A stretch of DNA of 64,000 nucleotides from Fidelibacterota bacterium (GTDB lineage: Bacteria; Fidelibacterota; UBA8477; JABMPR01): assembly GCA_016845065.1 (NCBI GenBank), contig JAERTG010000050.1, positions 129,948 to 193,947 on the forward strand, given 5' to 3'. A program made the translations under genes and the position numbers. Below, piece after piece: positions 8,159 through 61,856 of the stretch. How positions within the stretch are numbered: the first letter of the stretch is position 1; each line of letters opens with the position of its first letter. The notes below the pieces were generated by a model. The model saw nothing but the letters and a program-made list of their open reading frames with translations, was not told the DNA's origin and made no database searches.

Positions 8159-8174
8159 CTAGATGGATAATATC

Positions 8175-9536: not shown

Positions 9537-9545
9537 GGTCTGAAC

Positions 9546-10310
9546 CTATTTGGGCATCCGTTTTAAATTCTTTTCTTGAAAAAGATCAACCTTTACTCCA
9601 GTATCCACCTCCTGGTCACTAAAGGTGAGCCGAGTATTGGATCCCTTCTGAACATTCTCTACATAGATTTCACTGGGAAGGTCATAGCCCTTGTCCTTAT
9701 GATACTTCATTACGCGTCGTTTTAGTAAATTGTTTCTTGTATCGTAGGCTTCATCCAAGATGGAAACTAAATCAGCCTTACTTACATATGTGATAAACCT
9801 TTTGTATGTACGCGTAACACCTGCCTTTGGTGTACTCTCCAGAATATGGCATTCAATTCCATCCACAACTTTTTCACCTAGAATTTCATAGGTATACTCG
9901 TCCAGCTCTCGTGAAGTCATATCTTCATAGCTCAGATCAGAACCCATAAAGGAGTCAGCCTTTTTCTTGGAGCTGATACGACGAACCTTCTTGAAAGCAG
10001 GTAGCCAGAGACGCATCTCATCATCTTTTTGCTCATGCTCGATTTTTAAAAAAGCAACACCCTTGTCATCTGCAGGGGCAAGAAACCAGATGATCTGCTT
10101 CCGATTGTCATCGGCTGAAATGGAACGGATGGTTGATTCTCTGGTTTTGCCCTGTTTGTTCGTCAGAATCATGGTCATGTTGGACTTCATATCAATTGGT
10201 GCGGATTTGTCTTCCATGGCTTTCGCCAATTCGTATCCGGTTTCGGCAAATATCATCATGGGGAGCATGAGGAGTATTACACTGGTGAAGTTTTGGTTGA
10301 TAGTTTTCAT
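9546..10310 (-). CDS. LolA-like outer-membrane lipoprotein-sorting/carrier protein
   Basis: Signal peptide present. Length ~250 aa. Resembles the LolA-like fold family that is routinely encoded next to MMPL transporters. Confidence 0.6.
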   Translation of the reverse strand: MKTINQNFTSVILLMLPMMIFAETGYELAKAMEDKSAPIDMKSNMTMILTNKQGKTRESTIRSISADDNRKQIIWFLAPADDKGVAFLKIEHEQKDDEMRLWLPAFKKVRRISSKKKADSFMGSDLSYEDMTSRELDEYTYEILGEKVVDGIECHILESTPKAGVTRTYKRFITYVSKADLVSILDEAYDTRNNLLKRRVMKYHKDKGYDLPSEIYVENVQKGSNTRLTFSDQEVDTGVKVDLFQEKNLKRMPK

Positions 10311-10336
10311 TTCAAAATCCTTCTTTTGATTAGGTC

Positions 10337-12637
10337 TTATTCAGGGACCGCAATACCTTCAATACGGGCCAATCGTTTTTTGTTCATTTCAAGTAAGATC
10401 GCGAGAAGTGTCAATGTCGCAGTTGAAGTCGAGACCATGGCGAAGACCATTAATCCACCCATATGGATCATGGGGATAAACATGGAAAATAACAGTGCTC
10501 CGAAAGCCATATTGGATGCAGCATCAAGAATAACGGGGAAACCAACATCTCGCATAGTCTCTCGGCTCAATTTGCCATCAAGACCGTGAGTGTGTAGGTG
10601 ATTTCGGAACTGACTGATATAATGAACTGCAAAATCCACTCCCACCCCAATTATGATTGCTGAGAGTAGGGCTGTAACATGGTTGAGGTCCACACCAAAA
10701 ATACCCATGAGCCCAAAGTTCAGAATAACAGCTGAACTGAGTGGGACTACTGCCAGAAGACCCCACAACCAGTGTTTGAAGAAGTATCCGACAATGAGGG
10801 CGATAATGATGATGGAAGCCAGAATGCTGATGAATGAACTCTGTACGATGAGGGCTACCAGATCACGGAAGACTATGAGCAATCCACTTACGGTAATATT
10901 CAAGTCTTTGTATTCATCCTGCTGGAGAAACTCCTCGATCTCTTTGACCAGCACCACGATCTCAGCGGTGGATATTGAGCGCATCATGGAGGTGGCAAGC
11001 CCCTTTTCATAGTCGTAGTCCACAAGCGAACTGAAGTCATCAGGATCTCCAGACATGGAGTACAGGGTGAACAAGTTATTCACTTTAGCTCGCGTATCAG
11101 GAATGGTTTCAAATGCCGGATCATCATCATTGACCATGCGGTGCATCTGTTTGATCACATCGGCAATTGAAATAGACAGGGTCACTGATTCGTATTCTTC
11201 CATGAACTCCTGAATGCTTTCCATTTTATTCAGAATTTCAGGATCCTTCAGGTCTGCATTGATCAACAACTGCAAATCCATAGTGCCTGTCATCTCGCTA
11301 TCCATGAATTCAAGGCTTTGACGAATGGGATTATCGTGTTTGAACATATCTGTCATGTTTACTTCAATGTTAAGTTTGAAAAAGCCCAATATACCAATCA
11401 CGATCACCACAGCACCGCCCACGAGGACGGCCTTAGGACGCCTGATTACCTGTTCACCAAAAGCAATGACAAATCGCTCAAAGTGGCTGGGATGGGATAC
11501 AGCAGCAGAATCTGGATTCCATTTCTTCAGTACGAGTATCGAGGGTAGAAAAATAGTTGAAAGTATCCAGGCCCACAGGATGCCCATTGAGATGGACACA
11601 CCATATCCAAAAAGTGGTTCCAGAGGAGCAAAGACCAGACAGAGAAACGCTGCCACTGTAGTCAGTGCAGTAAGGAAGATAGGTAGTAGGAGGGAGTTAA
11701 TACTGGCTCCGACGGCTTCCCGAGAATCTTTATTTATGCGCATCTTCCTGAAAAACTTGGTGACAACGTGGACACCATATGAGTTGGCAATTGTTAACAG
11801 AATTATGGGCATTGTGGTATTCAAGACACCGAACATGAACTTGTCGGATCCTGTAAAATGAATCATCCATCCGTTGAAGCCCAGCATAAACACGAGGGAA
11901 AGGACTATGGTTGCCAGAACGCTAAGCACAGAGGGGACATTTCTGAAGCTGAAAAGGAGTATGAGCAACATGCCCATCAAGCCAACCCGCATCAATCCCA
12001 TGACATCATCACGTATGATGGACGGCAGTGCTCCAGTAAGATAGGCCTGGCCTCCCCAGTGTACATCGTAGTCAGCAAGGTACTTGTCAGCAACCTCCTG
12101 CATTTCAGTTACGAGTACATCATTTCCAGCTCCGATAACTGGTCGGATGATCACATTGAAATAGTCACCCTTGGATCCAACATTTCTAGTCTTGATCTTT
12201 GAATTTGAATCCAGATACTCACGCAAATTAGCAATCTCCTGCGCATCAAGATCACGATATTCCTGGAGTGAAGAAACCTCCAGAAAACCATCAATACTTT
12301 CCATTTTATCGGTGGTGGAAATACACATAATCTCATCGACATATTCGATCTGCTCCAGCGAGTAGGCCACATCCCAGAGTGTAGCCAGACTCTTTGCATT
12401 CAATACATCTTCACCACGTTTCCCAAAGCCAAGAAACATGAGATCACTGCTGCCAAACTCATCCTTGAGCTCATTCAGGGTCACCATGGTAGGAATATCC
12501 TGGGGCAGCATCTTCATAAAGTCATCTTCTATCACGAAGTGCCTGAGTCCTGAAGCCATCATCAGAGTGAGTAGAATTGTTATAATTATACTACGTTTGG
12601 GGTGATCTACGGACTGGCTGATGAACCACTGTTTCAT
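10337..12637 (-). CDS. MMPL-family RND superfamily exporter (12 TM, two 6-TM halves with periplasmic domains)
   Basis: 766 aa. Two hydrophobic blocks separated by soluble domains. Start overlaps the tetR stop (ATGA). Confidence 0.8.
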   Translation of the reverse strand: MKQWFISQSVDHPKRSIIITILLTLMMASGLRHFVIEDDFMKMLPQDIPTMVTLNELKDEFGSSDLMFLGFGKRGEDVLNAKSLATLWDVAYSLEQIEYVDEIMCISTTDKMESIDGFLEVSSLQEYRDLDAQEIANLREYLDSNSKIKTRNVGSKGDYFNVIIRPVIGAGNDVLVTEMQEVADKYLADYDVHWGGQAYLTGALPSIIRDDVMGLMRVGLMGMLLILLFSFRNVPSVLSVLATIVLSLVFMLGFNGWMIHFTGSDKFMFGVLNTTMPIILLTIANSYGVHVVTKFFRKMRINKDSREAVGASINSLLLPIFLTALTTVAAFLCLVFAPLEPLFGYGVSISMGILWAWILSTIFLPSILVLKKWNPDSAAVSHPSHFERFVIAFGEQVIRRPKAVLVGGAVVIVIGILGFFKLNIEVNMTDMFKHDNPIRQSLEFMDSEMTGTMDLQLLINADLKDPEILNKMESIQEFMEEYESVTLSISIADVIKQMHRMVNDDDPAFETIPDTRAKVNNLFTLYSMSGDPDDFSSLVDYDYEKGLATSMMRSISTAEIVVLVKEIEEFLQQDEYKDLNITVSGLLIVFRDLVALIVQSSFISILASIIIIALIVGYFFKHWLWGLLAVVPLSSAVILNFGLMGIFGVDLNHVTALLSAIIIGVGVDFAVHYISQFRNHLHTHGLDGKLSRETMRDVGFPVILDAASNMAFGALLFSMFIPMIHMGGLMVFAMVSTSTATLTLLAILLEMNKKRLARIEGIAVPE

Positions 12638-13254
12638 GAAAGCTCCTCTAGGATTTGAATCCCCTCTTCCGTCAACATACCTCTCAGGAATATCTCCCGA
12701 AAAGATTGAAATGCCTGTGTGGGATTTAAATTATTTTGAATAAAAAATTCTGGTTGAAAGGTTGAGTTTATGATGTGCATAAACATGGTTGCTGTTAAAT
12801 CGATATCTAATTCCTGCCGGATAAGGCTCTGTTTCTGACCCAACTTGAAGATCGTCAGAAAGTCATCCCTTCTGTTTAGGCGGAATTCCTCCATGCGCTT
12901 CCAAATTTGTGGGTAGCGAATTTTTATATCGCCAAGCCGTCGTATGGAAACTTTGGAAGCCGTGCTTGATAGCAATGTGAGGATTCGATTTAATTGATGA
13001 ATAGCGGTGGGCTCTTTTTCCATGGTCCTCTTGAAATGCCACACGACCTGACCAGACGCGAATTCGAACATCTTTTCGAGAAGTCGCTCTTTGGAAGGGA
13101 AAAATTTATAGATTGTCTTTTTACTCATCCCCAGGTCCTGAGCAAGGTTCTCTACTGTAAACGAGCGAACACCATCACGATGGAGAAGTTCGAAACCACG
13201 CTCAAGAATGAGGTCCTCGGGTTGATTGCTCGATGGAAACGTTTTTCGTGTCAT
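12634..13254 (-). CDS. TetR/AcrR family transcriptional regulator
   Basis: N-terminal HTH segment LILERGFELLHRDGVRSFTVENLAQDLGMSKKTIYKFF. Likely start is MTRKTF at 13254; the ORF track runs to 13290. Confidence 0.8.
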   Translation of the reverse strand: MTRKTFPSSNQPEDLILERGFELLHRDGVRSFTVENLAQDLGMSKKTIYKFFPSKERLLEKMFEFASGQVVWHFKRTMEKEPTAIHQLNRILTLLSSTASKVSIRRLGDIKIRYPQIWKRMEEFRLNRRDDFLTIFKLGQKQSLIRQELDIDLTATMFMHIINSTFQPEFFIQNNLNPTQAFQSFREIFLRGMLTEEGIQILEELS

Positions 13255-13307
13255 ACGTTTCCAATCTATACAGAAATACAATCCATGCAAGACAGATTTT
13301 GATCAAA

Positions 13308-15581
13308 TTACCTGTTAAAAATGAATTTTGGTCGTGTAAGAATGAGCACCAGAGGTAACAGCGTCAAGGCAGCAATTAAGCACATGAAAATGGAGACCGA
13401 GATGAGCCATCCAAAGAAATAGATGGGAATGAAGGTGGAAAGCATGCAAACAGCAAAACCCATCATCACAGAGAATCCATTAATGATGATGCCCTGGCCT
13501 GTGGTGCTTAATGTTTTTACGATGGCCTCCTCATCAGTGAGACCCTTACGGATTTCAGTTCTAAATCGGAACAAAAAGTGAATAGTATAATCAATACCTA
13601 TACCTATCATGATTGAACTAAGCATTGAAGTCGCCGTGTTCAAATATATACCCAGGTACCCCATCAGGCCAAAAACACCTGCAATAGCAAATGCCAGAGG
13701 CATAGCGCTAATTAATGCAGCTGATAAAGATCTGAAAACAAGACCCGTTACCAGTGCAGCAAAGATTACTGACAATACAAGACTGCGAATTTGACCCTTT
13801 ACCATCATAGGCATCAAATTCCCAAGAAGTACAGCATACCCCTCACTTTTGGGCTTGTTATCTACGTGGATATTTTCATTGAGGAATTGATTTAACTCCT
13901 CCTGAAGATCCACCATATAATACACATCCATGGTATTAAGTCTTACCACGATTTGGGCGGTCCGATAATCATAGTCCACATAAGAATCCAGATAGCCATC
14001 GCTGGATTCCCATGAGTATAACAACAAGTATTGGGAAACCAGCTGACGTGATTCAGGTATGGTGTAATAAGCTGGATCCCCACCGTTCATCGACTGGTTC
14101 ATGAGCTTTAGGAAATCTGTTATGGCCAACGTATACCCAACTCCCTCGCGATCCTCAAGAAACTGTTGTATTTGATCAACCTGGTATAATACATCAGGAG
14201 ATTTTATGTCTCCCTCCACTACAACAGACATGGTCGTACTGCCCCCAAAGTGATCTTCGATGATATTGTTGATCACCCTTACATTGGACTCAGGGCTATA
14301 GTAATTGAGGGGGTTGCTATCTAATTCAACTTTGGGAATGCCGATTGCTGCAATGATCATAATCAAAGCAAATGCAGCAAATATGATATTGCGGTGGTGG
14401 AAAACGACGCTTCCAATCCTTACCAAAATCCGTGAAAGCAACCTGTTGGCAGTATTTTTATTCTGTCTTTCAGAACTAGGTTTTTTAGTCAGGACCAATA
14501 CTGCCGGGATGAATGTTATTGATATTCCGAAGGCCAGAACTACACCAAAGGCTGTCAAAATACCCACTTCTCTTGAGGCGGGCAAAATGTGAGAGAGCAA
14601 AGATAAAAATCCAATCACCGTGGTAAGACCAGCCAAAAAGAGGGGTCTCATCATGTGCTCGATGACATTGGTGACAACTTCCTTATTATCTGCATCATCT
14701 GGCAAATCTGCACAATCTTCAAAATAGCGCGTAATGATGTGAATACCATATGCACTGGCGACAGCGATCAGCATGATGGGCATGATACTGGTAATGACAG
14801 ACAACATAAGCCCAAACCATGCCATGAGACCCAAAGTCCCCAGAATCGACAATAAAACAACCAGGAGGGGCAGAGCCACCCCACGACGGGAGCGGAAACT
14901 AAAATAAAGTAGAAGTGCAATCAGCACCATACCGGAAGGAATAAATGTGCGTGTGTCATGAGCAATATCTTCTGATATTTGGGATCTGATGACTGGCATG
15001 CCACCCAACCTTAAATCATGGCTCGCTTCTTGATAGGGCTGAAGCACACGTTTCAGGGTATCAACTACTGCAACCTCATCAACATCTGGATCAGAGTAAA
15101 TGATGATAGCAGTATATTTGCCATCGGCGGACACAAGTAGCCGTCCTAATATTGGATCTGCCAGTGCAGTGCCAGACAATGAATCACTCTCTGCTTGATT
15201 CCGAGGCAATTCCTGAATGAAGCTTTCCACTGTCATTGATTCATCATCACTTGTGATGGATTCATAATTGGTCAAACTGATAATATGATCAATTTCAGTC
15301 AGGGCTTCCAGATCATAGGTCAGATTGTCAATCATCTCAAGACTCTCACTAGCGAAAACATCCTCAGCATGATAGCTGATCAGGATGACATCCAAGCCAC
15401 CAAATTCTTCTTCAAGTTCTTCCATTCGAATGACATCCGGGTCATCAGCTGGGATTAGCGCTTGTAGATCGGGATTAATATGAATCCTATATATGGGGAG
15501 GGCTAAAAGTGTAATTACCAGGATATTTATGAAGATAATGACCTTCGGATGCTGCGTGATTATCCTGGTGAAATTTTTCAT
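13308..15581 (-). CDS. MMPL-family RND superfamily exporter (second copy)
   Basis: ~757 aa with the same two-lobed TM architecture. ATG at 15581; the track's TTG is at 15590. Confidence 0.8.
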   Translation of the reverse strand: MKNFTRIITQHPKVIIFINILVITLLALPIYRIHINPDLQALIPADDPDVIRMEELEEEFGGLDVILISYHAEDVFASESLEMIDNLTYDLEALTEIDHIISLTNYESITSDDESMTVESFIQELPRNQAESDSLSGTALADPILGRLLVSADGKYTAIIIYSDPDVDEVAVVDTLKRVLQPYQEASHDLRLGGMPVIRSQISEDIAHDTRTFIPSGMVLIALLLYFSFRSRRGVALPLLVVLLSILGTLGLMAWFGLMLSVITSIMPIMLIAVASAYGIHIITRYFEDCADLPDDADNKEVVTNVIEHMMRPLFLAGLTTVIGFLSLLSHILPASREVGILTAFGVVLAFGISITFIPAVLVLTKKPSSERQNKNTANRLLSRILVRIGSVVFHHRNIIFAAFALIMIIAAIGIPKVELDSNPLNYYSPESNVRVINNIIEDHFGGSTTMSVVVEGDIKSPDVLYQVDQIQQFLEDREGVGYTLAITDFLKLMNQSMNGGDPAYYTIPESRQLVSQYLLLYSWESSDGYLDSYVDYDYRTAQIVVRLNTMDVYYMVDLQEELNQFLNENIHVDNKPKSEGYAVLLGNLMPMMVKGQIRSLVLSVIFAALVTGLVFRSLSAALISAMPLAFAIAGVFGLMGYLGIYLNTATSMLSSIMIGIGIDYTIHFLFRFRTEIRKGLTDEEAIVKTLSTTGQGIIINGFSVMMGFAVCMLSTFIPIYFFGWLISVSIFMCLIAALTLLPLVLILTRPKFIFNR

Positions 15582-15729
15582 GGCCAGCAATGTATTGTGA
15601 CGCCCAGTCTGATGAAAGAAAAAGGAATATTTCAGCTTTTTTGAAGAAAATATTTTATGGGTTTAAAAAATGCTATGCACGCCTTATTTGAAGGATATAT
15701 TAAGCGTAACTAAGAAGTGAGACACGCTA

Positions 15730-16563: not shown

Positions 16564-16619
16564 TCAAATGAAATTATACATAACCTTTAACAATCGGTCC
16601 CCTTTGAACAGGGACCGAA

Positions 16620-18649: not shown

Positions 18650-18672
18650 TTAATATCCATTTATGATAATTA

Positions 18673-18706
18673 GAGCCGGTCGCTTCTCCGACCGGCTCTC
18701 TTGTCT
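18673..18706 (+). terminator. Rho-independent terminator after gap
   Basis: GC-rich hairpin gagccggtcg-cttctc-cgaccggctc followed by a T-rich tail. Confidence 0.6.
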
Positions 18707-18752
18707 AAAAAAAAGCAATATTTCAAACTGTTTTAGCTGGGAAATGTAAAGA

Positions 18753-20822: not shown

Positions 20823-20835
20823 ACACGAGGAATAA

Positions 20836-28319: not shown

Positions 28320-29954
28320 TCAGACCTCAGGAGTGTCCACCCAAACTGGTGAGGAAACGTAAATACCTGGCCATCTCGATCCATCACTACTTATCTCCAT
28401 GCGCAGGTAGGATTTGCCTTTGACTGTGAAATTTTGTGTAATCTCAAACTTCTTAGATATCTCAGATTCATAAAGGAGAAGCGATTCTTTCTGGCTTTCA
28501 AGGTTTCCAGCATATAGGGTAACATCCAAAGACAATCCGAACTCCTCAGTACAAAGACCCTCACATGACAGTTTGAGAATGTCGCCTTTCCTGGCTTCCA
28601 AAGTATCGCCAATCCCGTAATCAGATCCGTCAAAGGAGATTTTTAGATCTCCTATTGGACCTGTTGACAGGGCGGTGCGTCGTGCCTTCATGGCAGCTAC
28701 AATTTCAGCCGTTGCAGTGCCATCACTTCTGACAAGAGTCCTGGATTGAGCAAATATTTGGTCCTCATGGATACCCAATGACAACATGGGTAGTCTGACA
28801 TGCCAGTTTCTGTTTAGGTTGCCATGACCATCGCTTCCACCATATACACCTAATTTGTGATCCTTGAGTAGGGCATCAATCCACAGTTGCCTTGAAGTAT
28901 GGAAGGCTGCATAAGCAGGAGTGCCACAAAGAATTTGTACACCGTCAAGCTCTGGGTTAAGGTGATCCTCGGCTCCCCAGAATCCCCGTTTGAGGAGTAC
29001 CCGCTGAAACCAGGGGAACTTATAAGCAGTGTGGGCACCAACAGATACTGTCCCAGGAGATCGTTGAGCCAATACATCATCGATGCTTAATTGGGATTTA
29101 ATTTTGGGCCAGTCCTCACCACTATCACCGCTCCCCGGGAAATAGACGGGATCATTAAAATGCAGGAAGTGTACCGTTGATCCTCCAGCGTTGGCCACGC
29201 TTATCTCTTCACCTGGGATGATCGTAAGATCGCTCTCCTCATTTAGTGCTATGATATGCTTACGACTTTGGTTCCATTTCGCAAGCTCTGGATCATTTTC
29301 CAAATAATCGTGTGGGTGATCGTCCAGATCATAGGAATGATCGGTAGCTGTTATAAAATCCAATCCCAACAATTGAGCAGCTTTGCGGGTCTGTTCCAAA
29401 GAGGCACCAAATTCAATCTGATCGTTTGTCAGTGAGCTATGAAGATGTGTATCACCGGTTTGCCAACCTGCCAACTTTGGTAGATTTTCTTCGGTGATAG
29501 TGACTCTGAGTGGTGTTTTGCTGATACCGTGATAATTGTCAACCTGCATCCTGCGCTGTTTCCCAGAAATGGAGTAATTCAATGTGGGAATAATATCAAT
29601 TTCTCCAAATGGAAGCATGACCGGATCAAAGGAGAATTCAAAATCGATCTGCCTGTGGCTAAGGTCTTGATTTAATGTCCAGTTCTGTGTGTGGAGTGTT
29701 TGGTTATTTTTAAGTATCTCAATCTCAACAGATCCCAGTTTGACGGGGTAGAGATGCGCGTCCTTCACGACGAGAAAAATGCTTAATTTTTGTCCAGGCT
29801 CTAAACGCCAGGGGGTATCAAAGATTAGCTCAGGTTCTCGCTTGAAATATCGACTGAAGGGAATTCGGAATCGGAAGTGTGTTTCAGCATATAAACCGAT
29901 GAGGGGCACCATATCCAGCAATTTGCCAGAGATGGTATTGAAAGTGTTCTCCAT
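28320..29954 (-). CDS. PHP-domain-like (CehA/McbA-type) metallohydrolase, hypothetical
   Basis: His/Asp metal-ligand pattern GDTHLHS...ITATDHSYD...VHFLHF. 544 aa. Confidence 0.45.
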   Translation of the reverse strand: MENTFNTISGKLLDMVPLIGLYAETHFRFRIPFSRYFKREPELIFDTPWRLEPGQKLSIFLVVKDAHLYPVKLGSVEIEILKNNQTLHTQNWTLNQDLSHRQIDFEFSFDPVMLPFGEIDIIPTLNYSISGKQRRMQVDNYHGISKTPLRVTITEENLPKLAGWQTGDTHLHSSLTNDQIEFGASLEQTRKAAQLLGLDFITATDHSYDLDDHPHDYLENDPELAKWNQSRKHIIALNEESDLTIIPGEEISVANAGGSTVHFLHFNDPVYFPGSGDSGEDWPKIKSQLSIDDVLAQRSPGTVSVGAHTAYKFPWFQRVLLKRGFWGAEDHLNPELDGVQILCGTPAYAAFHTSRQLWIDALLKDHKLGVYGGSDGHGNLNRNWHVRLPMLSLGIHEDQIFAQSRTLVRSDGTATAEIVAAMKARRTALSTGPIGDLKISFDGSDYGIGDTLEARKGDILKLSCEGLCTEEFGLSLDVTLYAGNLESQKESLLLYESEISKKFEITQNFTVKGKSYLRMEISSDGSRWPGIYVSSPVWVDTPEV

Positions 29955-30173
29955 TTAGTGTTAATAGGAATCATATTGCAGGAAGGCAAGTGAAAAGGCT
30001 GAAACAATGTCCATAAGGTGTGTCCAAAACCAGTGAGAATCTCGGGAGTGATTAGCGTACAAATTCAATGGGAGATACAGATGCGTCAGGGAATACTTGC
30101 GGATAAAAAGTTTGCCATGATTTCAGCCCCCGGTTAACTTCGCGCCACTTAAGAAGGAGTCTGGTAAGTAATT

Positions 30174-30737
30174 ATGGGTAGTACATCCGATATAAAAAAC
30201 AATTTGGTGATGGAGTTTAATGGCAATCTTTGGAAAGTTGTTGAATTTCTTCACGTTAAACCTGGCAAAGGAAATGCTTTTGTCAGAACAAAATTAAAAA
30301 AAATTCCAGGCGGTCAGGTCATAGAACAGACCTTTCGATCGGGTGAAAAAATAGATGATGTCAAATTGTTCGCCAATGAAATGACCTATCTGTACTCTGA
30401 TGAATCTCATTACCATATTATGGACAATGAAACCTATGAGCAAATAGCTATTGATGCTGAGCTCATGGAATCTGTTAAAGATTATCTCAAAGAAAACGAT
30501 TTCATTAAAGTCTTGTTTAGAGATTCAACACCCGTGGATGTCGAAGTAGCACCCCATGTGATACTGGAGATCAAAGAAACAGATCCAGGTTTACGTGGAG
30601 ATACAGCCACAGGTGGTTCAAAACCTGCTTTTCTAGAAACCGGTCTAAAAGTAACGGTTCCGCTCTTTCTAAATATCGGGGACAAAGTCAAGGTTGACAC
30701 TCGTACGGGGGAATATCTGGAACGCGTGAGGGCTTAG
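30174..30737 (+). CDS. efp: Translation elongation factor P
   Basis: Full-length match to EF-P, including [14 protein letters not shown]. Confidence 0.95.
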
Positions 30738-30750
30738 GAGAAATTATATT

Positions 30751-31200
30751 TTGAATACTAAAGACATAGAACAGCTCATCGAGTTACTGGAAAAATCTTC
30801 CATATCAGAGATTGAAGTCGGCAAGTGGGGAAAGAAAATTCGAGTCTCCAGACAAGGTGGACACGTAGTTGTACAAAACTCAGACATGGTTTCAGATGCT
30901 ACGCCTACAACTCCTGCAGCCCCTGCTCCCTCCGAGACTACAGAAGATGAGAGCTCACTCCAGGGTGTTGCCATTAAATCACCTATGGTCGGAACCTTCT
31001 ATCGCTCTCCATCACCTGAGGTTGATGCCTTTGTCAAAGTTGGAGATCACGTAAAAAAGGGTGATACGCTCTGTATTATTGAAGCCATGAAAATTATGAA
31101 TGAGGTCGAGGCAGAAGTATCTGGTGTCATTCTCGATATCCAGATTGAAAATGCCCAACCCGTTGAGTATGGTCAGACCCTCTTTCTCATAGAACCTTGA
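30751..31200 (+). CDS. accB: Acetyl-CoA carboxylase biotin carboxyl carrier protein
   Basis: Biotinyl-lysine motif EAMKIMNEV. Pro/Ala-rich linker. TTG start. Confidence 0.9.
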
Positions 31201-31209
31201 TAAACAATT

Positions 31210-32568
31210 ATGTATAACAAAATACTCATTGCCAATCGTGGTGAAATCGCTCTACGCGTGATTCGTGCCTGTCGTGAAATGGGTATCAAGAGTGTTGCGA
31301 TTTATTCGGAGGCAGATGAACTTTCGCTTCACACAAAATTTGCAGATGAAGCCGTTTGCATTGGTCCCGGACCCTCTAATCTTAGTTATTTAAACACCCA
31401 GGCAATTCTTACTGCAGCAGAAGTTACCAATGCTGATGCCATTCATCCAGGATATGGTTTTCTTGCTGAAAGTGCCGATTTTGCTAATATGTGTAAAAAG
31501 CACAATATTGATTTTATTGGCCCAGACGGCGATATGATTGATGCCATGGGTGATAAGGCTTCAGCCAAAGAGACCATGAAATCTGCTGGTGTTCCAGTAA
31601 TTCCTGGTAGCCAGGGAATTCTAAAATCTGCCGGTGCAGCCAGAGAAATGGCTGATGAAATGGGATATCCGGTAATTCTTAAAGCAACAGCCGGTGGTGG
31701 TGGTCGTGGAATGCGGGTAGTCTACAGATCTGAAGACGTAGCGAAATTTTATGGGATGGCCCAAGCTGAATCTGGTACTGCATTTGGCAACGATGGGCTG
31801 TATCTGGAAAAATACATTGAGAATCCTCGCCACATTGAGGTCCAACTATTGGGCGACACACATGGAAATGTTTTTTCCCTCGGCGAGCGTGAATGCTCCA
31901 TCCAGAGACGGCATCAAAAATTACTGGAGGAATCTCCTTCACCTGTCGTATCGGAGGAATTGAGGCATGAAATGGGTGAAGCTGCCGTAGCTGGCGCAAA
32001 ACGGGTAAACTATGTTGGTGCCGGAACCATTGAATTCTTACTTGATAAGCATGGAAAATTTTATTTCATGGAAATGAATACTCGAATTCAAGTTGAACAC
32101 ACCGTTTCAGAAGAAGTGACTGGTATCGATATCGTCAAAGAACAAATCTCCTGCCATGCTGGTGGAAAACTGCCTGGATGGATCGCTGGTATGAAGTTGC
32201 GTGGACATTCTATTGAATGTCGTATCAATGCAGAAGATCCAGCAATGAATTTTCGTCCATCGCCGCTGCTCATCCAAAGTGTACATTTCCCCGGAGGGCG
32301 TGGGATCAGAATAGATAGTCATATTTATAGTGGGTATCAAATTCCACCAAACTATGACTCAATGTTGGCGAAATTGATCGCTACAGGTCAAGACAGAGGA
32401 GAAGCTATAGATCGTATGGTGGGTGCCCTAAAGGAATTTATTATTGAGGGTCCTAAAACAACGATTCCCTTCCACATTCAGTTACTTGAAAATGAACAGA
32501 TCCGAAAGGGGAATTTCGATACACATTTTCTAGAGTCTTTCAAATATGATCCAAGTCGTGAGCAATGA
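31210..32568 (+). CDS. accC: Acetyl-CoA carboxylase biotin carboxylase subunit
   Basis: ATP-grasp biotin carboxylase with [11 protein letters not shown] near the N-terminus. Confidence 0.95.
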
Positions 32569-32699
32569 CCCTGGACCAAGACATTATCTAGAACTTATTG
32601 TCCCGTTTTGAACCGTAGGTTCGGCGGGATTTTTGCTGTTTAGGTGGAAGCTGTAATTTTTGGAAGTTATAAAGAATTGATTTGATTGAGGAGAGAAAG

Positions 32700-33077
32700 A
32701 TGAACGTGCCAGTTGAATTAAAATATACCAGCGACCATGAATGGATTCGTGTGGAAGGTGATTCTGCAACAATTGGTATCACTGACTATGCCCAGGGCGA
32801 ACTTGGTGATGTAGTTTTTGTTGAATTGCCAGATGTAGATGATGAATTTGAAAAGGGTGATGTTGCTGCGACGATTGAAGCTGTAAAAACGGTTGCTGAC
32901 GTATTTCTACCACTGGGTGGGAGTATCGAAGCCGTGAACGAACAACTCGATGATGCATCTGAATTAATCAATCAGGATGCGTATGGAGAAGGATGGATCC
33001 TAAAAATAAAAATGATTGATGCATCTGAATTAGATAGTTGTATGACAGCTGAGGAATATATCGCCAGTATTTCTTGA
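32700..33077 (+). CDS. gcvH: Glycine cleavage system H protein
   Basis: Lipoyl-lysine motif EAVKTV. ATG at 32700 is preceded by a GAGGAGAG RBS; the track starts at 32682. Confidence 0.9.
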   Translation: MNVPVELKYTSDHEWIRVEGDSATIGITDYAQGELGDVVFVELPDVDDEFEKGDVAATIEAVKTVADVFLPLGGSIEAVNEQLDDASELINQDAYGEGWILKIKMIDASELDSCMTAEEYIASIS

Positions 33078-33087
33078 TAGGACGATT

Positions 33088-34431
33088 ATGCACCAATACA
33101 TACCCAACACTGAAGACGAACAACTGAAGATGCTCAATGAGGTGGGAATTGCCTCATTTGAAGAACTCCTGGATAGTATCCCCAAGGACTTACGCTTTGA
33201 AGGTGATCTTCCTTTACCTCCAGCGAAATCTGAAATCGAGCACAAGCAGGACGTGCTGAGCATCCTTTCGGGGGACGCCAGCACAGCTTCTCATGTCTCA
33301 TTCTTGGGAGGGGGAAGCTACGATCACTTTATTCCCCATATCGTAGATGTATTGATTAGTCGCTCGGAGTTTTATACAGCCTATACACCATATCAGGCTG
33401 AAGTGTCTCAAGGCACTCTCCAGGCCATGTATGAATATCAATCAATGATTTGCGAACTTACCGGTATGGATTTGGCTAATTCGTCCATGTATGATGGTGC
33501 TAGTGCTATGGCAGAGGCATGTTTGTTAGCAGCTCGTCATACGCGACGCAAAAAAATACTAATCTCCAGAAGTGTAAATCCCATCTATGTTGACGTAGCT
33601 ATTACATATGCCCATTATCAAGGATTAGAATTTGATTTCATTAATTTGGACGAAGGTGTTACCTCACTTAATTCATTGTGTGGTCAACTCAATGCTGATA
33701 TAGCCGGGGTTGTGATTCAGAACCCCAATTTCTATGGTGGCCTTGAAGATTTGGCAGGCATCAAGGAAAGTATTGAAGATAAGAAGATTCAGCTAATTGC
33801 CGTGGTTAACCCCATCAGTCTGAACCTGCTGGAAGCTCCTGGTAAACTCGGAGTGGATATCGCTATTGGAGAGGGACAGTCCCTTGGAAATCATCTTAGC
33901 TTTGGTGGTCCTTATCTTGGTTTTATGGCGGTCAAGGAACCCCTTATTCGGAAAGTCCCAGGTCGAATCGCTGGTGAAAGTGTCGACGTACATGGTAACC
34001 GGGCATTTGTCATGGTACTTCGTACTAGAGAACAGGATATTCGTCGAGAAAAAGCCACCTCAAATATTTGTACTAATCAAGGACTGAACGCATTGGCTGC
34101 CTGTATTTACATGTCCACTCTGGGCAAGAATGGTATGAGGAAGGTCGCCGAACTAAGTGTGCAAAAAGCCCACTATCTGGCTGAAGCAATCAATGATCTC
34201 CCAGGTTTTTCGCTCAGGACCGAACTTTTTTTCAATGAATTCGTCATTGAAGTCCCTGGGGAAGCCAAAACTCTTGTTTCAAAGGCATCTGGAGCAGGAT
34301 TTTTTCCAGGAATTGCCTTGAGTCAATTTGAGAAGGATTCTGATAACCAGCTGCTTGTCGCTGTGACAGAAAAACGTAGCAAGAGCGAGATGGATAATCT
34401 GGTATCATTTCTGAAAGGGTATTCAGTTTGA
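33088..34431 (+). CDS. gcvPA: Glycine dehydrogenase (aminomethyl-transferring) subunit 1
   Basis: N-terminal MHQYIPNTEDEQLKML and the PLP-fold core. gcvPB is absent from this window. Confidence 0.9.
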   Translation: MHQYIPNTEDEQLKMLNEVGIASFEELLDSIPKDLRFEGDLPLPPAKSEIEHKQDVLSILSGDASTASHVSFLGGGSYDHFIPHIVDVLISRSEFYTAYTPYQAEVSQGTLQAMYEYQSMICELTGMDLANSSMYDGASAMAEACLLAARHTRRKKILISRSVNPIYVDVAITYAHYQGLEFDFINLDEGVTSLNSLCGQLNADIAGVVIQNPNFYGGLEDLAGIKESIEDKKIQLIAVVNPISLNLLEAPGKLGVDIAIGEGQSLGNHLSFGGPYLGFMAVKEPLIRKVPGRIAGESVDVHGNRAFVMVLRTREQDIRREKATSNICTNQGLNALAACIYMSTLGKNGMRKVAELSVQKAHYLAEAINDLPGFSLRTELFFNEFVIEVPGEAKTLVSKASGAGFFPGIALSQFEKDSDNQLLVAVTEKRSKSEMDNLVSFLKGYSV

Positions 34432-35171
34432 GTGTCTATGAACAAATGCTGGCAACCAAGTCTTCCAAAGGTGCTGGTTATCTGGTTCTGGTTGATCCCG
34501 ACCGCTGGGATTTGGATGAAGTTGAAGTATTCATAAATAAAATTAATAATTCTGGAGCTGATGGGATCATGGTGGGCAGTTCACTCATTCTTGGTGAAGG
34601 TGCCCAACGAAAAGTGAAACGGATTCAGGAAATTGCTACCTTACCAGTCATTCTTTTCCCTGGAAACGTAAACCAGTTGACACCTCATGTTGATGCCGTG
34701 TTCTATCTCTCAGTTATTAGCGGGCGCAATCCCCAATTTCTTATCGGTGATCAAGTTCAAGCCGCACCTGTAGTGAGAGAGCTCGGGATTGAACCAATGG
34801 CTACAGCCTACATGCTTATCGAAAGCGGTCGAGTCACCACGGCTGAGTTTGTCAGTGGTTCTAAGCCAATCCCCAGGGATAAGGATGAAATCGCTGTTGC
34901 ACACGCCCTGGCAGCTGACTATCTCGGTTTCAAGTTCATCTATCTTGAAGCAGGGAGCGGTGCCCAATATTCAGTTACACCTCAGATGGTAAAAGCCGTC
35001 ACTTCCTATACAGATGTCCCGGTTATCGTTGGTGGAGGTATCCATAGTCCAGATGTAGCCGCAACCCTTGTTCAAGCTGGTGCCTCATTTGTGGTGACAG
35101 GTAATGTTCTTGAAGATCCAGAGAACTCACATCTAATGGAAGCTTTTTCCAAAGCTATCCATAATAGCTAG
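34428..35171 (+). CDS. GGGPS/PcrB-family (hepta/geranylgeranyl)glyceryl-phosphate synthase, archaeal-type ether-lipid prenyltransferase homolog
   Basis: (beta/alpha)8-barrel family motifs LVDPDR, FIYLEAGSGA, and VIVGGGIHSPD...VVTGNVLED. The start is TTG at 34428 or ATG at 34446, coupled to the gcvPA stop. Confidence 0.8.
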   Translation: MSVYEQMLATKSSKGAGYLVLVDPDRWDLDEVEVFINKINNSGADGIMVGSSLILGEGAQRKVKRIQEIATLPVILFPGNVNQLTPHVDAVFYLSVISGRNPQFLIGDQVQAAPVVRELGIEPMATAYMLIESGRVTTAEFVSGSKPIPRDKDEIAVAHALAADYLGFKFIYLEAGSGAQYSVTPQMVKAVTSYTDVPVIVGGGIHSPDVAATLVQAGASFVVTGNVLEDPENSHLMEAFSKAIHNS

Positions 35172-35379
35172 TCCCTTCAGAATATTTCTTTTTACTGATT
35201 ACCGAGAGAAATTCTAAGTTCTTATTTTTACCAGGAAATCATTAAGTCATCCCGAGTGTCGCAATTAGCGTAATCGAAGTGTCAAGAATCGTGTGTTTTT
35301 GGACAATAGTTTGTGACCACTCGACTCTCCTCGAGGAGACGAGGTGAGGATTTAAGTAATACCTGGACTATATTCGCCC

Positions 35380-36285
35380 ATGGCTCGCTCTGAACAATAT
35401 CTTCAGGATTTCCTAAACTATCTCCGTATTGAACGCAATCTGGCCAAGAATACCCAGGACGCCTATCTGGATGATCTGGCAAATTTCTGGGAGTTTTTAA
35501 GCTCACTGAAAATTAGTTCACCTGAGAACGTGGACCATAAAACTCTCACTGAGTATGCACGTGTGTTGAAAAAGCGAAAAATGGCTGAAACTAGTGTAGC
35601 TCGCCACTTCTCCTCTCTGAGAGCCTACTACAAGTTTTTAGTCATGGAGGGCCACCTCTCTGATGACCCGACACAATTTTTAGATTCCCCAAAACTTCCA
35701 GCAAGTTTACCAAAAATTCTGAATTTTGAAGATATTATACTCCTATTGGAAAGCATTGACACGAAGACGGCCTTGGGATTGAGGGACAGAGCCATGTTTG
35801 AGCTCATGTATGCTGCAGGTATGAGAGTTTCTGAAGTATGTAATTTGACCATGGAACAGATCCTAATAGATGATGACCTCATTCTCATTCGTGGAAAGGG
35901 GAATAAGGAAAGAATTGTTCCCCTTGGCGAAGAAGCCAAAAACTGGCTAATTGAATACATAGAACATGGTCGACCATCTCTTGAAAAAGGGTACTTTAAT
36001 GAAGGTATTCTCTTCCTGAACAATAAGGGTAAACAACTGCAGCGGAAAGGAATCTGGTTTATCCTTAAGAAACTGGCTGAAAAGGCAGATCTACATAAAC
36101 CAGTAAGTCCACACACTTTCCGACATTCTTTTGCCACACATTTGCTGGAAGGGGGAGCGGATCTCCGAATTGTACAGGAAATGCTAGGCCATGTAGATAT
36201 TTCTACAACCCAGATTTATACTCATCTTGATAGCACTTATCTCAAAGAAGTCCACAGCAGTTTCCACCCTCGAGCACGTCGCTAA
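35380..36285 (+). CDS. xerD: Tyrosine site-specific recombinase XerD/XerC
   Basis: N-terminal SAM-like domain and the catalytic box HTFRHSFATHLLEGGADLRIVQEMLGHVDISTTQIYTHL. Confidence 0.85.
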   Translation: MARSEQYLQDFLNYLRIERNLAKNTQDAYLDDLANFWEFLSSLKISSPENVDHKTLTEYARVLKKRKMAETSVARHFSSLRAYYKFLVMEGHLSDDPTQFLDSPKLPASLPKILNFEDIILLLESIDTKTALGLRDRAMFELMYAAGMRVSEVCNLTMEQILIDDDLILIRGKGNKERIVPLGEEAKNWLIEYIEHGRPSLEKGYFNEGILFLNNKGKQLQRKGIWFILKKLAEKADLHKPVSPHTFRHSFATHLLEGGADLRIVQEMLGHVDISTTQIYTHLDSTYLKEVHSSFHPRARR

Positions 36286-36368
36286 TATGCAAAACAATCA
36301 GTCTCCCTGATAAGTCGCATCAATTCTAATCCATTGGTAGCTGTCATTTTCTCGTTTATTTTGATTCT

Positions 36369-37601
36369 ATGATCTTGAAAAATACATTCTATACGGATTG
36401 GGATTGTGAATCGATGGGGGAACGTCACCTCCCTGAGAATGAATATCGCAATGCCTTTGAAATTGACCGCGACCGGATCATTCATTCCACAGCGTTTCGA
36501 CGTCTGCAGGGGAAAACGCAGGTCTACGTGACAGGACAATCTGACCAATATCGTACCCGGCTGACACATTCCATTGAGGTTGCCCAAATTGGTAGATCAA
36601 TTGTAAACTATCTAAATAGAAGTTCGGAGCTATTGACAGCAGATTATCAGATTGATTCTGCCCTCGTGGAAGCTGCTTGTCTAGCTCATGATCTGGGCAA
36701 CCCACCCATTGGTCATAAGGGAGAATCCCGCTTAAATGAACTCATGGATGAATGGGGTGGTTTTGAGGGCAATGCTCAATCATTACGCATTCTAACAGAT
36801 ATTGTCAGGGGTGATCGCCGATATTACTCAAATGCAGGTATGCAAGCCACCCGTGCTTGTCTGGATAGTATACTGAAGTATAAAATTGTTGGTAAGCAAT
36901 ACACGGAAAATGGTGCGAAGTTTCTATACCCTGATCAGCAGGATATTATATCCTGGGTACACCAAGACCCTGCACTCGACGATTTAGTGCAAAGCGGAAC
37001 CCAGGTTCGCCCCATTGAGTGTGCAATTATGGATCTTTCTGATGACATTGCCTACACTACCTCTGATTTGTTTGATGGTGTAAAACAGAGCTTGTTAACA
37101 ACTGAACAAGTGGAGCGATTCTGGCTTGATCAGTATCCTCAAGCGAGCCAAAAAATCAGAGCTGATGTGGATCAAGTATTGAGAAATCAGTTCCCCATGT
37201 CACGCTTTATTGCAGGACTCATTGGGAGATGGATTTATTCAATTTCCCTCATTTCCATAGAAGCTCCCTATCTTGATGTTCCTCGATACAAGTATGGGTT
37301 GGAGATGGCAGAAGAGTCTCATTCAGATCTCATGGCTCTGAGATCCTTAAATTATAACTTGATTTATAATTCAGACTATGTGAAAATTCCAGAATCAAAA
37401 GGTGTAGAGATTCTGGAAGAACTGTTTCTGTATTTCCGAGATGTAATATTTAAGAAACGAGATATACTCGAACCCTTGCCTTTGCCGGCAGGGATATCAG
37501 ACGATTTTGATGAGAATCAGAAAATGCGCATGGTTTGTGATTTTGTAGCGGGAATGACGGACAATCATGCAATTCGGCTCCATTCCTGTCTTATAGCTTG
37601 A
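36369..37601 (+). CDS. dgt: dGTPase-family deoxynucleoside triphosphate triphosphohydrolase (HD domain)
   Basis: HD domain residues THSIEVAQIGRSI...AHDLGNPPIGH. Confidence 0.85.
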   Translation: MILKNTFYTDWDCESMGERHLPENEYRNAFEIDRDRIIHSTAFRRLQGKTQVYVTGQSDQYRTRLTHSIEVAQIGRSIVNYLNRSSELLTADYQIDSALVEAACLAHDLGNPPIGHKGESRLNELMDEWGGFEGNAQSLRILTDIVRGDRRYYSNAGMQATRACLDSILKYKIVGKQYTENGAKFLYPDQQDIISWVHQDPALDDLVQSGTQVRPIECAIMDLSDDIAYTTSDLFDGVKQSLLTTEQVERFWLDQYPQASQKIRADVDQVLRNQFPMSRFIAGLIGRWIYSISLISIEAPYLDVPRYKYGLEMAEESHSDLMALRSLNYNLIYNSDYVKIPESKGVEILEELFLYFRDVIFKKRDILEPLPLPAGISDDFDENQKMRMVCDFVAGMTDNHAIRLHSCLIA

Positions 37602-38184
37602 GTTCCTTGTAAAAAATATCAACCTTTGCCAACAGCTCAATCAGACTGCCATCATTGTTAATGACATGGTCAGCCCTGCGAATCTTCTCTTCGATGGGCA
37701 TTTGAAGGGCATCACGTCGATCAAAATCAACCTTGGAAATGCTACTTCGTCGTTCAACCCGACCTTCTCTAAACATGCGTTTTGCTACCACGACTAACAC
37801 ACCATCGGTGATGCTATCCGCATGGGCTTCAAATAGCAGTGGAGCATCAACAACAAATAGTGACTTCCCTTGAGATCGCGCCATCTCGATGCGATCCAGG
37901 GTAATTCGGCGGACTTCAGGGTGAATGAGATGATTCAGAAAAAGTTGATCTTCCCTGGTGTTAAAAGCTCTTTCGGCTAATATCTGTTTTTGAAGATTTC
38001 CCGCTTCATCAAGGATATCTGTACCAAATCGCTGAGCCAGACTGGCTAATATTTCAGGATCGTTTCTGAGAATTTCTTTTGCGAGTGGGTCGGAGTGAGA
38101 TACGACGGCTCCATGGTGGGCAAGGCGGTCACTAACCGTACTCTTACCCGAACCGATATTTCCCGTAACCCCGAGGATATACAT
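37591..38184 (-). CDS. coaE: Dephospho-CoA kinase
   Basis: P-loop ILGVTGNIGSGKST and the CoaE fold. Confidence 0.9.
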   Translation of the reverse strand: MYILGVTGNIGSGKSTVSDRLAHHGAVVSHSDPLAKEILRNDPEILASLAQRFGTDILDEAGNLQKQILAERAFNTREDQLFLNHLIHPEVRRITLDRIEMARSQGKSLFVVDAPLLFEAHADSITDGVLVVVAKRMFREGRVERRSSISKVDFDRRDALQMPIEEKIRRADHVINNDGSLIELLAKVDIFYKELKL

Positions 38185-40726: not shown

Positions 40727-41113
40727 CTAAGAACCGAGATCCTGTTGACCGAAGGCCTGGGGCAATAATTGTGAAGAGCTTGTTTCAGTGCAGACTCCTG
40801 TTTCACTAACCAGTGTGATTGGTATTTCCCCACATAATTCCCATATAACCTGGCGACAGGCACCACAGGGGCTAACCCCATTTTCAGTAGCCACCACGAG
40901 ATGGGTGAAATTATTTTCACCAGCAGCAATAGCGGAAAACAAGGCAGTGCGCTCAGCACAAATCGTCAAGCTATAGCTGGCATTTTCAATATTACATCCC
41001 TGATATATTTCCCCATTGGCGGTTTCTAGAGCCGCACCAACGTGAAAATTGGAGTAGGGAGCATAGGCTTTTTTACGAGCGTCCAGGGCGACATCTTTAA
41101 GTTTGCTTTGCAT
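40727..41113 (-). CDS. cdd: Cytidine deaminase
   Basis: CAERTA and PCGACRQ zinc motifs. Start set at the internal ATG (41113), which overlaps the rhomboid stop by 1 nt. The ORF-track N-terminal extension was rejected. Confidence 0.85.
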   Translation of the reverse strand: MQSKLKDVALDARKKAYAPYSNFHVGAALETANGEIYQGCNIENASYSLTICAERTALFSAIAAGENNFTHLVVATENGVSPCGACRQVIWELCGEIPITLVSETGVCTETSSSQLLPQAFGQQDLGS

Positions 41114-41751
41114 TATGAATTCCCGCTTAGTCGATATTTGTGGTATATGCTGTAAAATACCAGTCCAAGAATAAATCCACCGATGTGCGCAATATAAGCG
41201 GTTGTGCCTTGAGGTGTCAGTATTTCGAATAAAAATTGTGTAGCGATCCAGATGCCAATGAACCACGCTGCCCTGATTTTTAAAAAGAGTACAAAAAAAG
41301 TCCAGGTTAAGATTTTAGCACTGGGGTATCGCAATGCGTAACTGGCTAAAACCCCGGAAATAGATCCAGATGCTCCAATGAGCAATCCGGGTCCATCAGC
41401 ACCAAAGTAGGGATCAAAATAAACCTCAAACAAGGCTGCACCTGCCCCACATCCTAGATAAAAGAGCAAGAAAAATTTTCGACCCAGGGACCCTTCCATA
41501 TTGTCACCAAAAATGTAAAGGAAGAGCATATTGAAAATCAGGTGACTCCAACTCCCGTGTAGAAACTGGTGTGTTATAAGACTAGGGAAAGCCTGAATTG
41601 GGTTGCTGCGAAACAAATCCTCTGAGAAAACGAACAAGTCAAAATTGTAAAAATAGGTGAGGAGATACAGGGCAAAGTTTGCAATAATAAGACCATAAGT
41701 GGTGTAGGGTTTACGTAGAGCAGGATTAGTATCTGAAATTGGAATAAACAT
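41113..41751 (-). CDS. Rhomboid-family intramembrane serine protease
   Basis: 6-TM protein with catalytic GASGSISG and HIGG. Confidence 0.8.
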   Translation of the reverse strand: MFIPISDTNPALRKPYTTYGLIIANFALYLLTYFYNFDLFVFSEDLFRSNPIQAFPSLITHQFLHGSWSHLIFNMLFLYIFGDNMEGSLGRKFFLLFYLGCGAGAALFEVYFDPYFGADGPGLLIGASGSISGVLASYALRYPSAKILTWTFFVLFLKIRAAWFIGIWIATQFLFEILTPQGTTAYIAHIGGFILGLVFYSIYHKYRLSGNS

Positions 41752-60815: not shown

Positions 60816-60828
60816 GGTGGTGAAGCAG

Positions 60829-61827: not shown

Positions 61828-61856
61828 CAAGCAATAACAAACCAGAGGAGGTTTAA

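Follow-up and report, generated by a model that had tools for sequence, protein, structure and literature searches.

A group II geranylgeranylglyceryl phosphate synthase gene overlapping gcvPA in a Fidelibacterota (Marinimicrobia) genome

What does a gene for geranylgeranylglyceryl phosphate synthase (GGGPS), the enzyme that introduces the first ether bond in lipids of archaeal type, the committed reaction by which archaeal membranes differ from bacterial ones, do in a bacterium, and why does it overlap a gene for glycine cleavage? We addressed this question for a 64,000-nucleotide stretch of DNA from a Fidelibacterota bacterium (assembly GCA_016845065.1, contig JAERTG010000050.1, positions 129,948 to 193,947), hereafter the window, in which an open reading frame (ORF) of the GGGPS/PcrB family begins inside the end of gcvPA. 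Fidelibacterota is the current NCBI name of the phylum Marinimicrobia (SAR406), which belongs to the FCB (Fibrobacteres-Chlorobi-Bacteroidetes) group. The occurrence of GGGPS in FCB bacteria lies at the heart of the debate on the lipid divide and mixed membranes, and its presence in the group, Marinimicrobia included, has already been published. We found that the ORF probably codes for a working group II GGGPS of the bacterial, FCB type, that the gene is under strong purifying selection, and that its overlap with gcvPA is conserved in relatives.

Family, start codon, modeled fold and selection of the GGGPS gene

34428..35171, + strand: group II GGGPS gene, 247 amino acids (aa), TTG start (evidence: PF01884, NF003198, TIGR01769, PDB 4JEJ/4MM1, AlphaFold2 (AF2) model, dN/dS)

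We compared the ORF with family models and solved structures. It matched PF01884 (Pfam PcrB) with an E-value of 1.4e-44 and 152.7 bits against a cut-off of 23.9, residues 18-240 aligning with positions 8-222 of the 226-position profile. The cut-offs of three further models were exceeded: NF003198 of NCBIfam (278.8 bits against 247), TIGR01769, the equivalog for geranylgeranylglyceryl phosphate (GGGP) synthesis (214.9 against 161.55), and TIGR01768, the GGGP-family model (183.1 against 113.25). Scores fell far below the cut-offs of the heptaprenyl/PcrB equivalog of group Ib, NF003197 (38 bits against 260), and of the archaeal group I models TIGR04146 (51 against 320) and TIGR04147 (32 against 300). 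Sequence scores against group II enzymes of known structure were 168 bits for Flavobacterium johnsoniae (4JEJ), 161 bits for Methanothermobacter thermautotrophicus (4MM1), and 149 and 144 bits for two Thermoplasma entries (6JO3 and 6NKE); group I enzymes scored 39.5 bits (Archaeoglobus fulgidus, 2F6U) and about 30 bits (Bacillus subtilis PcrB). By these hidden Markov model and PDB scores and by structural similarity, rather than by a tree, the protein is assigned unambiguously to group II. A sequence-only reading of this DNA had proposed a match to the GGGPS/PcrB family along the full length, quoting the motifs LVDPDR (residues 21-26), FIYLEAGSG (170-178), VIVGGGI (199-205) and VVTGN (222-226). 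The Pfam and NCBIfam matches and the positions of the motifs bear this out.

Two start codons are available to the gene. An internal ATG at 34446 gives a 241-aa version, which a gene caller used on an identical public contig. An exact look-up found the 241-aa version on two short contigs with identical gene order, and no match for the 247-aa version. The upstream TTG is nevertheless the better supported start, because residues 2-6 align with the N-terminal helix (alpha0) of the F. johnsoniae enzyme, the N-terminal residues that follow from the TTG are kept in relatives lacking the internal ATG, and residues 3-14 are modeled by AF2 as a helix with high confidence.

The nearest homologues, at 70-95% identity, carry annotations as Candidatus Marinimicrobia, also called Neomarinimicrobiota, or as FCB-group bacteria, which agrees with the FCB-group type that had been proposed for the gene. 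The closest species-representative genome is that of Ca. Neomarinimicrobiota BS150m-G71 (JADHVL01) from the Black Sea, whose GGGPS is 94% identical. Enzymes of this type are already known from FCB bacteria, including this phylum, and public databases annotate the close homologues correctly. Both GGGPS and the enzyme DGGGPS (digeranylgeranylglyceryl phosphate synthase) were reported in all 12 FCB phyla surveyed, Marinimicrobia among them (Coleman et al. 2019, PMC6431249), and Marinimicrobia bacterium CG1_02_48_14 is listed with both genes in supplementary table 5 of that study.

To characterize the protein further, we built an AF2 model from a 13-sequence alignment, with homologues spanning 52-89% identity. 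The model (pLDDT 86.6, pTM 0.88) is a (beta-alpha)8 TIM barrel to which one N-terminal helix is added. In Foldseek comparisons it resembled group II GGGPS structures with TM-scores of 0.90-0.93 and a root-mean-square deviation (rmsd) of 1.6-1.8 A, and group I and PcrB structures with TM-scores of 0.72-0.78 and an rmsd of 2.8-3.5 A. The top 27 PDB matches were all GGGPS (TM-scores 0.76-0.93 when normalized to the query and 0.90-0.95 when normalized to the target).

The roles of individual residues, including the catalytic and phosphate-binding positions and Y124, Y165 and E167 of the A. fulgidus enzyme, were taken from published work (PMC9385802). The Tyr/Tyr/Glu set that positions glycerol-1-phosphate (G1P) and serves catalysis and stereospecificity corresponds to Y128, Y172 and E174, which line up with Tyr, Tyr and Glu in both the Methanothermobacter and the Flavobacterium enzyme and are invariant in the 13 homologues. 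The phosphate-binding loops beta-alpha 6, 7 and 8 correspond to EAGSG (S177-G178), GGG 202-204 and TGN 224-226. Residues S177, G178, G202-204, T224 and G225 are invariant in the same homologues and N226 is found in at least 90% of them, and the N-terminal DPD at residues 23-25 is likewise invariant across the 52-89% identity range. The sequence-only reading had named a loss of the substrate-binding residues as grounds for doubting the enzyme; the residues are conserved in the 13 homologues.

Two further positions bear on the product and on the assembly of the enzyme. In group II enzymes, a small aliphatic limiter residue on helix alpha3' sets C20 specificity (PMC9385802). The equivalent position is L84, matched by I90 in the Flavobacterium enzyme and by V86 in that of Methanothermobacter, and the column holds Leu, Ile or Val in all 13 homologues; a C20 substrate would fit this pattern. 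An aromatic anchor has been linked to the formation of hexamers in group II enzymes (PMC7888582, PMC9385802). F141 occupies the anchor position, at which Methanothermobacter has W141 and the dimeric Flavobacterium enzyme has an Arg; F141 would predict a hexamer, a trimer of dimers.

The gene itself is under strong purifying selection. Compared with a 94%-identical orthologue, pN was 0.032 and pS 0.62, giving a dN/dS of about 0.025, and no stop codon was found in any of the orthologues.

Gene order around GGGPS and its overlap with gcvPA

We then analyzed the genes around GGGPS. The features of the locus are as follows.

30174..32568, + strand: efp-accB-accC block (elongation factor P, biotin carboxyl carrier protein, biotin carboxylase), from Pfam for accC, the Pfam matches of relatives and tblastn synteny
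32600..32635, + strand: hairpin with T-run between accC and gcvH, GTCCCGTTTTGAACCGTAGGTTCGGCGGGAT TTTTG, -15.8 kcal/mol
32682..33077, + strand: gcvH, glycine cleavage H protein (Pfam GCV_H 7.5e-40; NF002270 and TIGR00527 above cut-off)
33088..34431, + strand: gcvPA, alpha subunit of glycine dehydrogenase (decarboxylating) (NF001696 594.9 bits against a cut-off of 364; Pfam GDC-P)
34415..34419, + strand: candidate ribosome-binding site, purine-rich AAGGG, 8 nt upstream of the TTG and inside the gcvPA coding sequence, from the sequence
34428..34431, + strand: TTGA overlap of the GGGPS start (TTG, 34428-34430) with the gcvPA stop (TGA, 34429-34431), read from the sequence
35380..36285, + strand: xerC/xerD-like tyrosine recombinase (Pfam Phage_integrase and Phage_int_SAM_1), after a 208-nt gap downstream of GGGPS

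The gene order efp-accB-accC-gcvH-gcvPA-GGGPS-xerD was found to be kept in relatives whose GGGPS is 94, 89, 87, 83, 78, 71, 63, 58 and 54% identical to that of the window. The XerC/D-type neighbor occupies the same position in all relatives at 63-94% identity and was not found at 54% (L012 and L019). The gcvH gene of the relatives is called from an ATG equivalent to 32700, giving 125 aa. Three GTDB bins titled 'uncultured Lentisphaeria bacterium' (L015, L016 and L018) show this Marinimicrobia-type order with GGGPS at 63-83% identity, and their titles are probably taxonomic mislabels. Directly upstream of efp, on the opposite strand, the window carries a 544-aa ORF without a Pfam domain (28320-29954, - strand); a counterpart of 541-546 aa, with no Pfam match on record, is present in the Marinimicrobia loci that have gene calls, at 58-89% GGGPS identity.

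The overlap of GGGPS with gcvPA is likewise conserved. A TTGA or GTGA overlap with a non-ATG start was present in eight distinct loci (L003, L006, L008, L010, L012, L013, L015 and L017), reaching down to 54% GGGPS identity, and several of these loci lack the internal ATG of the window. Together with the alpha0 alignment and the modeled helix, this supports both the TTG start and a real translational coupling, as the sequence-only reading had claimed. Motifs of the type AAGGA, AAGGG or GAAGGAG stand at the same spacing in relatives. AAGGG is possibly a ribosome-binding site, which we infer with caution since the same bases encode the C-terminus of gcvPA. Variation was also observed. In a groundwater relative (L011), GGGPS starts with ATG after a 21-nt gap to gcvPA. 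Two deeper Marinimicrobia loci (L028 and L070, with GGGPS at 7001) have the order efp-accB-accC-gcvH-GGGPS with no gcvPA in between, so that within the phylum gcvPA must have been gained or lost at this site.

We scanned the window ORFs of at least 150 aa with Pfam, leaving aside five ORFs that lie across longer ones and the adenylate-kinase ORF. Neither gcvPB nor gcvT was found among the scanned ORFs, in agreement with the earlier statement that gcvPB is absent from the window, and gcvPB was also absent from all related flanks. The GcvPB model scored only 73 bits on gcvPA.

The hairpin between accC and gcvH was found to be kept in six related loci, among them L013, L003, L017, L015 and L006, with one compensatory change from C-G to T-A. 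It is probably an intrinsic terminator, and gcvH-gcvPA-GGGPS is therefore predicted to form its own transcription unit. Co-transcription with accBC as a lipid-balance operon is disfavored by this conserved terminator-like hairpin. A glycine riboswitch upstream of gcvH, which would have put GGGPS under the control of glycine, was also considered and rejected, as no Rfam family reached threshold in the window. A permissive Rfam scan of 32450-32800 gave chance-level matches only, and the hairpin fits no Rfam family. A scan of 29900-37700 for sigma-70 promoters and terminators returned counts equal to the shuffled expectation and was uninformative save for this hairpin. The downstream 'integrase' raised the possibility of recent horizontal transfer or a mobile element, which is rejected because GC content is flat (0.41-0.47) across 28-40 kb and because the recombinase is the XerC/D-type neighbor kept in the relatives described above.

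Outside Marinimicrobia, the surroundings of GGGPS are different. In Bacteroidota, Ignavibacteria, KSB1, Calditrichota, Latescibacterota and others, GGGPS follows alaS in 30 of about 70 loci, often with recA-recX before it, and a gmhA-like SIS gene or a CpsB-like gene lies downstream. In these roughly 30 loci (among L020-L092; for example, L092 4258-6921 and L044 1209-1802), the block (recA-recX-)alaS-GGGPS-gmhA-like (SIS)/CpsB-like is followed by a BatA/VWA protein. Because gcvPA is variably absent and GGGPS sits in the alaS/gmhA-like context elsewhere, the theme of the neighborhood is simply housekeeping and not a lipid operon, and the coupling to gcvPA is conserved and lineage-typical without demonstrable functional meaning. 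The operon context had been called odd in the earlier reading; the coupling is real but not peculiar, being an arrangement conserved across the phylum.

Further clusters were observed elsewhere in the window.

9546..15590, - strand: two MMPL/RND-type transporters, TetR regulator and LolA-like protein (Pfam)

These genes belong to a wider cluster (7244-15590, - strand) in which one MMPL/RND transporter has Patched and sterol-sensing-domain matches and two ORFs (304 and 453 aa) have no Pfam match. Next to it, 15730-22482 (+ strand) encodes an archaeal-type TrmB sugar regulator, two tandem GAPDH paralogues, a GH57 4-alpha-glucanotransferase and a glucan phosphorylase, an alpha-glucan utilization cluster with an archaeal-style regulator. 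The region 54031-63869 (+ strand), with a TonB-dependent receptor, a 1290-aa ORF without a Pfam match, a PorV-like protein and a 670-aa protein with a type IX secretion system C-terminal sorting domain, may be a surface or secretion locus. A cytidine deaminase gene (40727-41266, - strand; 179 aa with a GTG start by the longest-ORF call) overlaps a rhomboid gene (41113-41751, - strand) by about 150 nt. The deaminase of relatives is 128-129 aa long, so the true start is probably further downstream.

Proposed reaction and competing explanations

The features above can be assembled into a proposed reaction. By homology, the (beta-alpha)8 barrel would hold glycerol phosphate through the S177-G178, G203-G204 and T224-G225-N226 loops, while geranylgeranyl diphosphate (GGPP) with Mg2+ would lie in a hydrophobic groove whose depth may be set by the aliphatic limiter L84. 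Ionization of the diphosphate would give an allylic C20 carbocation, which would be attacked by the glycerol-phosphate hydroxyl, polarized by E174, Y128 and Y172. The expected products are GGGP, an ether lipid precursor, and pyrophosphate. The enzyme may act as a hexamer assembled through F141, unlike the dimeric Flavobacterium enzyme. With GGGPS as the last predicted cistron of gcvH-gcvPA-GGGPS, ribosomes ending gcvPA would probably re-initiate at the overlapping TTG, and GGGPS would thus be made constitutively alongside housekeeping genes. The later steps, namely the second prenylation by a UbiA-type DGGGPS, activation with CDP and the addition of head groups, would depend on genes at other sites of the genome.

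Published work gives this proposal a precedent. Group II enzymes of Bacteroidetes and Ca. Cloacimonetes make GGGP in vitro (PMC7852524). The Cloacimonetes GGGPS does so with G1P and also accepts glycerol-3-phosphate (G3P), and expressed together with DGGGPS in Escherichia coli it led to phosphatidylglycerol (PG)-archaeol (Villanueva et al. 2021, PMC7852524). The idea of mixed ether lipids is a published hypothesis for FCB bacteria (PMC7852524, PMC6431249) and not new evidence from the window.

Several points weigh against the proposal. Among the scanned ORFs there was no UbiA/DGGGPS (PF01040), no polyprenyl/GGPP synthase, no geranylgeranyl reductase (GGR), and no G1P dehydrogenase (G1PDH) of the Fe-ADH type. 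A tblastn search with bacterial DGGGPS and GGR found nothing in the window or in the Marinimicrobia loci. G1PDH was reported only in Fibrobacteres and Cloacimonetes and as absent from Marinimicrobia at phylum level (PMC6431249). The conversion of GGPP and G1P to GGGP and pyrophosphate has been shown only for the Bacteroidetes and Cloacimonetes homologues (PMC9385802, PMC7852524). Fidelibacter multiformis, the only cultured member, was analyzed for fatty acid methyl esters only, and no ether lipid has been demonstrated in the phylum. Position 226 is Asn, at which group II enzymes are described with a conserved Thr.

Partner genes were observed in other lineages. A motif and transmembrane screen with tblastn for UbiA, DGGGPS and GGR, covering the window and 92 related loci, gave matches only in L083, L090 and L064. 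L083 (970-7744; GTDB CAZMCH01, Poribacteria-like by the names of its homologues) holds a compact archaeal-type lipid cluster that ends in GGGPS, in the order UbiA (349 aa), polysaccharide pyruvyl transferase-like gene, 552-aa gene of unknown function, DGGGPS-like UbiA (280 aa, 245 bits to NF009521), ferredoxin-fused GGR and GGGPS. GGR also lies directly upstream of GGGPS in L090 (TA06) and L064 (Poribacteria). When the L083 DGGGPS was used as a query, the best 120 matches were all Poribacteria-like or without a name, a result that says nothing on Marinimicrobia. Co-localization of GGGPS with DGGGPS in bacteria had seemed restricted to Cloacimonetes (Villanueva et al., PMC7852524).

The most serious competitor is a variant of the proposed reaction. 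Since the lineage is reported without G1PDH, GGGP-like ethers could be made on G3P, with bacterial stereochemistry, or on G1P of another source, a possibility that we hold tentatively and consider less likely than not; it would leave the main reading standing. The restriction of G1PDH to Fibrobacteres and Cloacimonetes among the surveyed FCB phyla (PMC6431249), the lack of a G1PDH-like gene among the scanned window ORFs and the acceptance of G3P by GGGPS, with either stereochemistry conceivable for archaeal-like lipids of FCB bacteria (Villanueva et al., PMC7852524), all point this way. The G1P-stereospecificity residues Y128, Y172 and E174 are fully conserved, though, and E. coli without G1PDH still made G1P-based ether lipids, so another bacterial source of G1P may exist (PMC13400652). 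That the enzyme is instead PcrB-like, joining a chain other than C20 (for example C35) into a minor, non-structural lipid in the manner of Bacillus, whose product is dephosphorylated and acetylated, appears improbable. The two share a Pfam family, no DGGGPS is adjacent to the gene, and what GGGPS products do in bacterial physiology is described as unknown (PMC7888582); but the NF003197 score of 38 bits against 260, the scores of about 30 bits, TM-scores of 0.72-0.78 and identities of 17-22% to PcrB structures, and a limiter Leu resembling the Ile and Val of C20-specific group II enzymes all argue for a GGGP synthase, as the characterized bacterial group II enzymes are.

The remaining alternatives start from the genomic context. 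GGGPS in the slot of gcvPB could mark a functional link between glycine cleavage and ether lipids, either by co-regulation with glycine or one-carbon status or by physical association, as the 4-nt overlap and gene order kept down to 54% GGGPS identity and the absence of gcvPB from the window and related flanks might suggest. We regard this as very improbable, given that L028 and L070 lack the intervening gcvPA, GGGPS of L011 starts with ATG after a gap, GGGPS stands between alaS and a gmhA-like gene in other FCB phyla, Rfam reveals no glycine riboswitch, and there is no known biochemical connection. There is only a slim chance that GGGPS works with the MMPL/LolA-like cluster as an ether-lipid exporter, the envelope-lipid link at which the sequence-only reading had hinted. 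In its favor, two MMPL/RND-type transporters, a TetR regulator and a LolA-like protein are present at 9546-15590. That cluster has its own TetR regulator and is on the opposite strand at a distance of about 19 kb; unrelated genes for sugar metabolism (the TrmB/GAPDH/GH57/phosphorylase cluster), for a sigma factor and for a TonB-dependent receptor lie in between, and it was absent from the 7-10 kb flanks of the related loci, standing near GGGPS in none of the 92. Equally remote is a reverse or salvage role, in which the enzyme would degrade or re-use environmental archaeal lipids. Salvage has been raised for FCB genomes without G1PDH (Coleman et al., PMC6431249), but reversal of a pyrophosphate-releasing reaction is not expected, the strong purifying selection and the housekeeping context across the superphylum speak against it, and recombinant FCB enzymes are synthases.

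We therefore retain the proposed synthesis of GGGP by a group II enzyme. The window adds to the published picture that this phylum keeps GGGPS as a strongly conserved gene of housekeeping type, in translational coupling with gcvPA, and that the enzyme carries an aromatic anchor from which a hexamer may be predicted. Both details could be of use for choosing a Marinimicrobia enzyme for biochemistry or designing transcript assays, and they leave the current picture unchanged. In dark and oxygen-poor ocean waters, Marinimicrobia/SAR406 rank with the most abundant groups of bacteria. That they express GGGPS constitutively, tied to housekeeping genes through the conserved overlap, and produce isoprenoid glycerol ether lipids in substantial amounts with no canonical G1P dehydrogenase seems unlikely to us; if true, SAR406 membranes would be naturally mixed and would contribute to a marine lipid pool that is currently read as archaeal.

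Comparison with known GGGPS and PcrB systems

We compared the window with four characterized systems. B. subtilis PcrB (group Ib) belongs to the same Pfam family, is a TIM barrel and uses G1P as acceptor. It differs in its low similarity to the window protein (about 30 bits, 17-22% identity) and in its C35 specificity, with a chain-length ruler on helix alpha4a.

The Ca. Cloacimonetes pair (PMC7852524) is an FCB case from anoxic marine water and from a lineage without egsA/araM. Its GGGPS was active in vitro and, with its partner, yielded PG-archaeol in E. coli. The reference genome closest to the window, BS150m-G71, also comes from the Black Sea. In Cloacimonetes, GGGPS adjoins DGGGPS, whereas the order in the window is gcvH-gcvPA-GGGPS-xerD, with no UbiA within the 64 kb among the scanned ORFs.

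The group IIa enzyme of M. thermautotrophicus (4MM1), an archaeal hexamer, matched the window protein with 161 bits, a TM-score of 0.91 and an rmsd of 1.6 A, and W141 and V86 align with F141 and L84. In that archaeon, a complete G1PDH-GGGPS-DGGGPS pathway builds the whole membrane. Unlike it, the host of the window is a bacterium with fatty-acid genes, accBC adjoining the locus, and the partner genes were not found among the scanned ORFs of the window.

The best match among solved structures was the bacterial group IIb enzyme of F. johnsoniae (4JEJ), with 168 bits over residues 2-236, a TM-score of 0.90, an rmsd of 1.6 A and 37% identity. The window protein differs in having Phe141, as hexameric group II enzymes do, in its genomic context, and in Asn226, a position taken by Thr in the Flavobacterium and Methanothermobacter enzymes. 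The two proteins have in common the Tyr/Tyr/Glu set, the phosphate loops and the aliphatic limiter (I90 and L84, respectively), and the F. johnsoniae protein is an FCB-group bacterial enzyme that has been shown to make GGGP.

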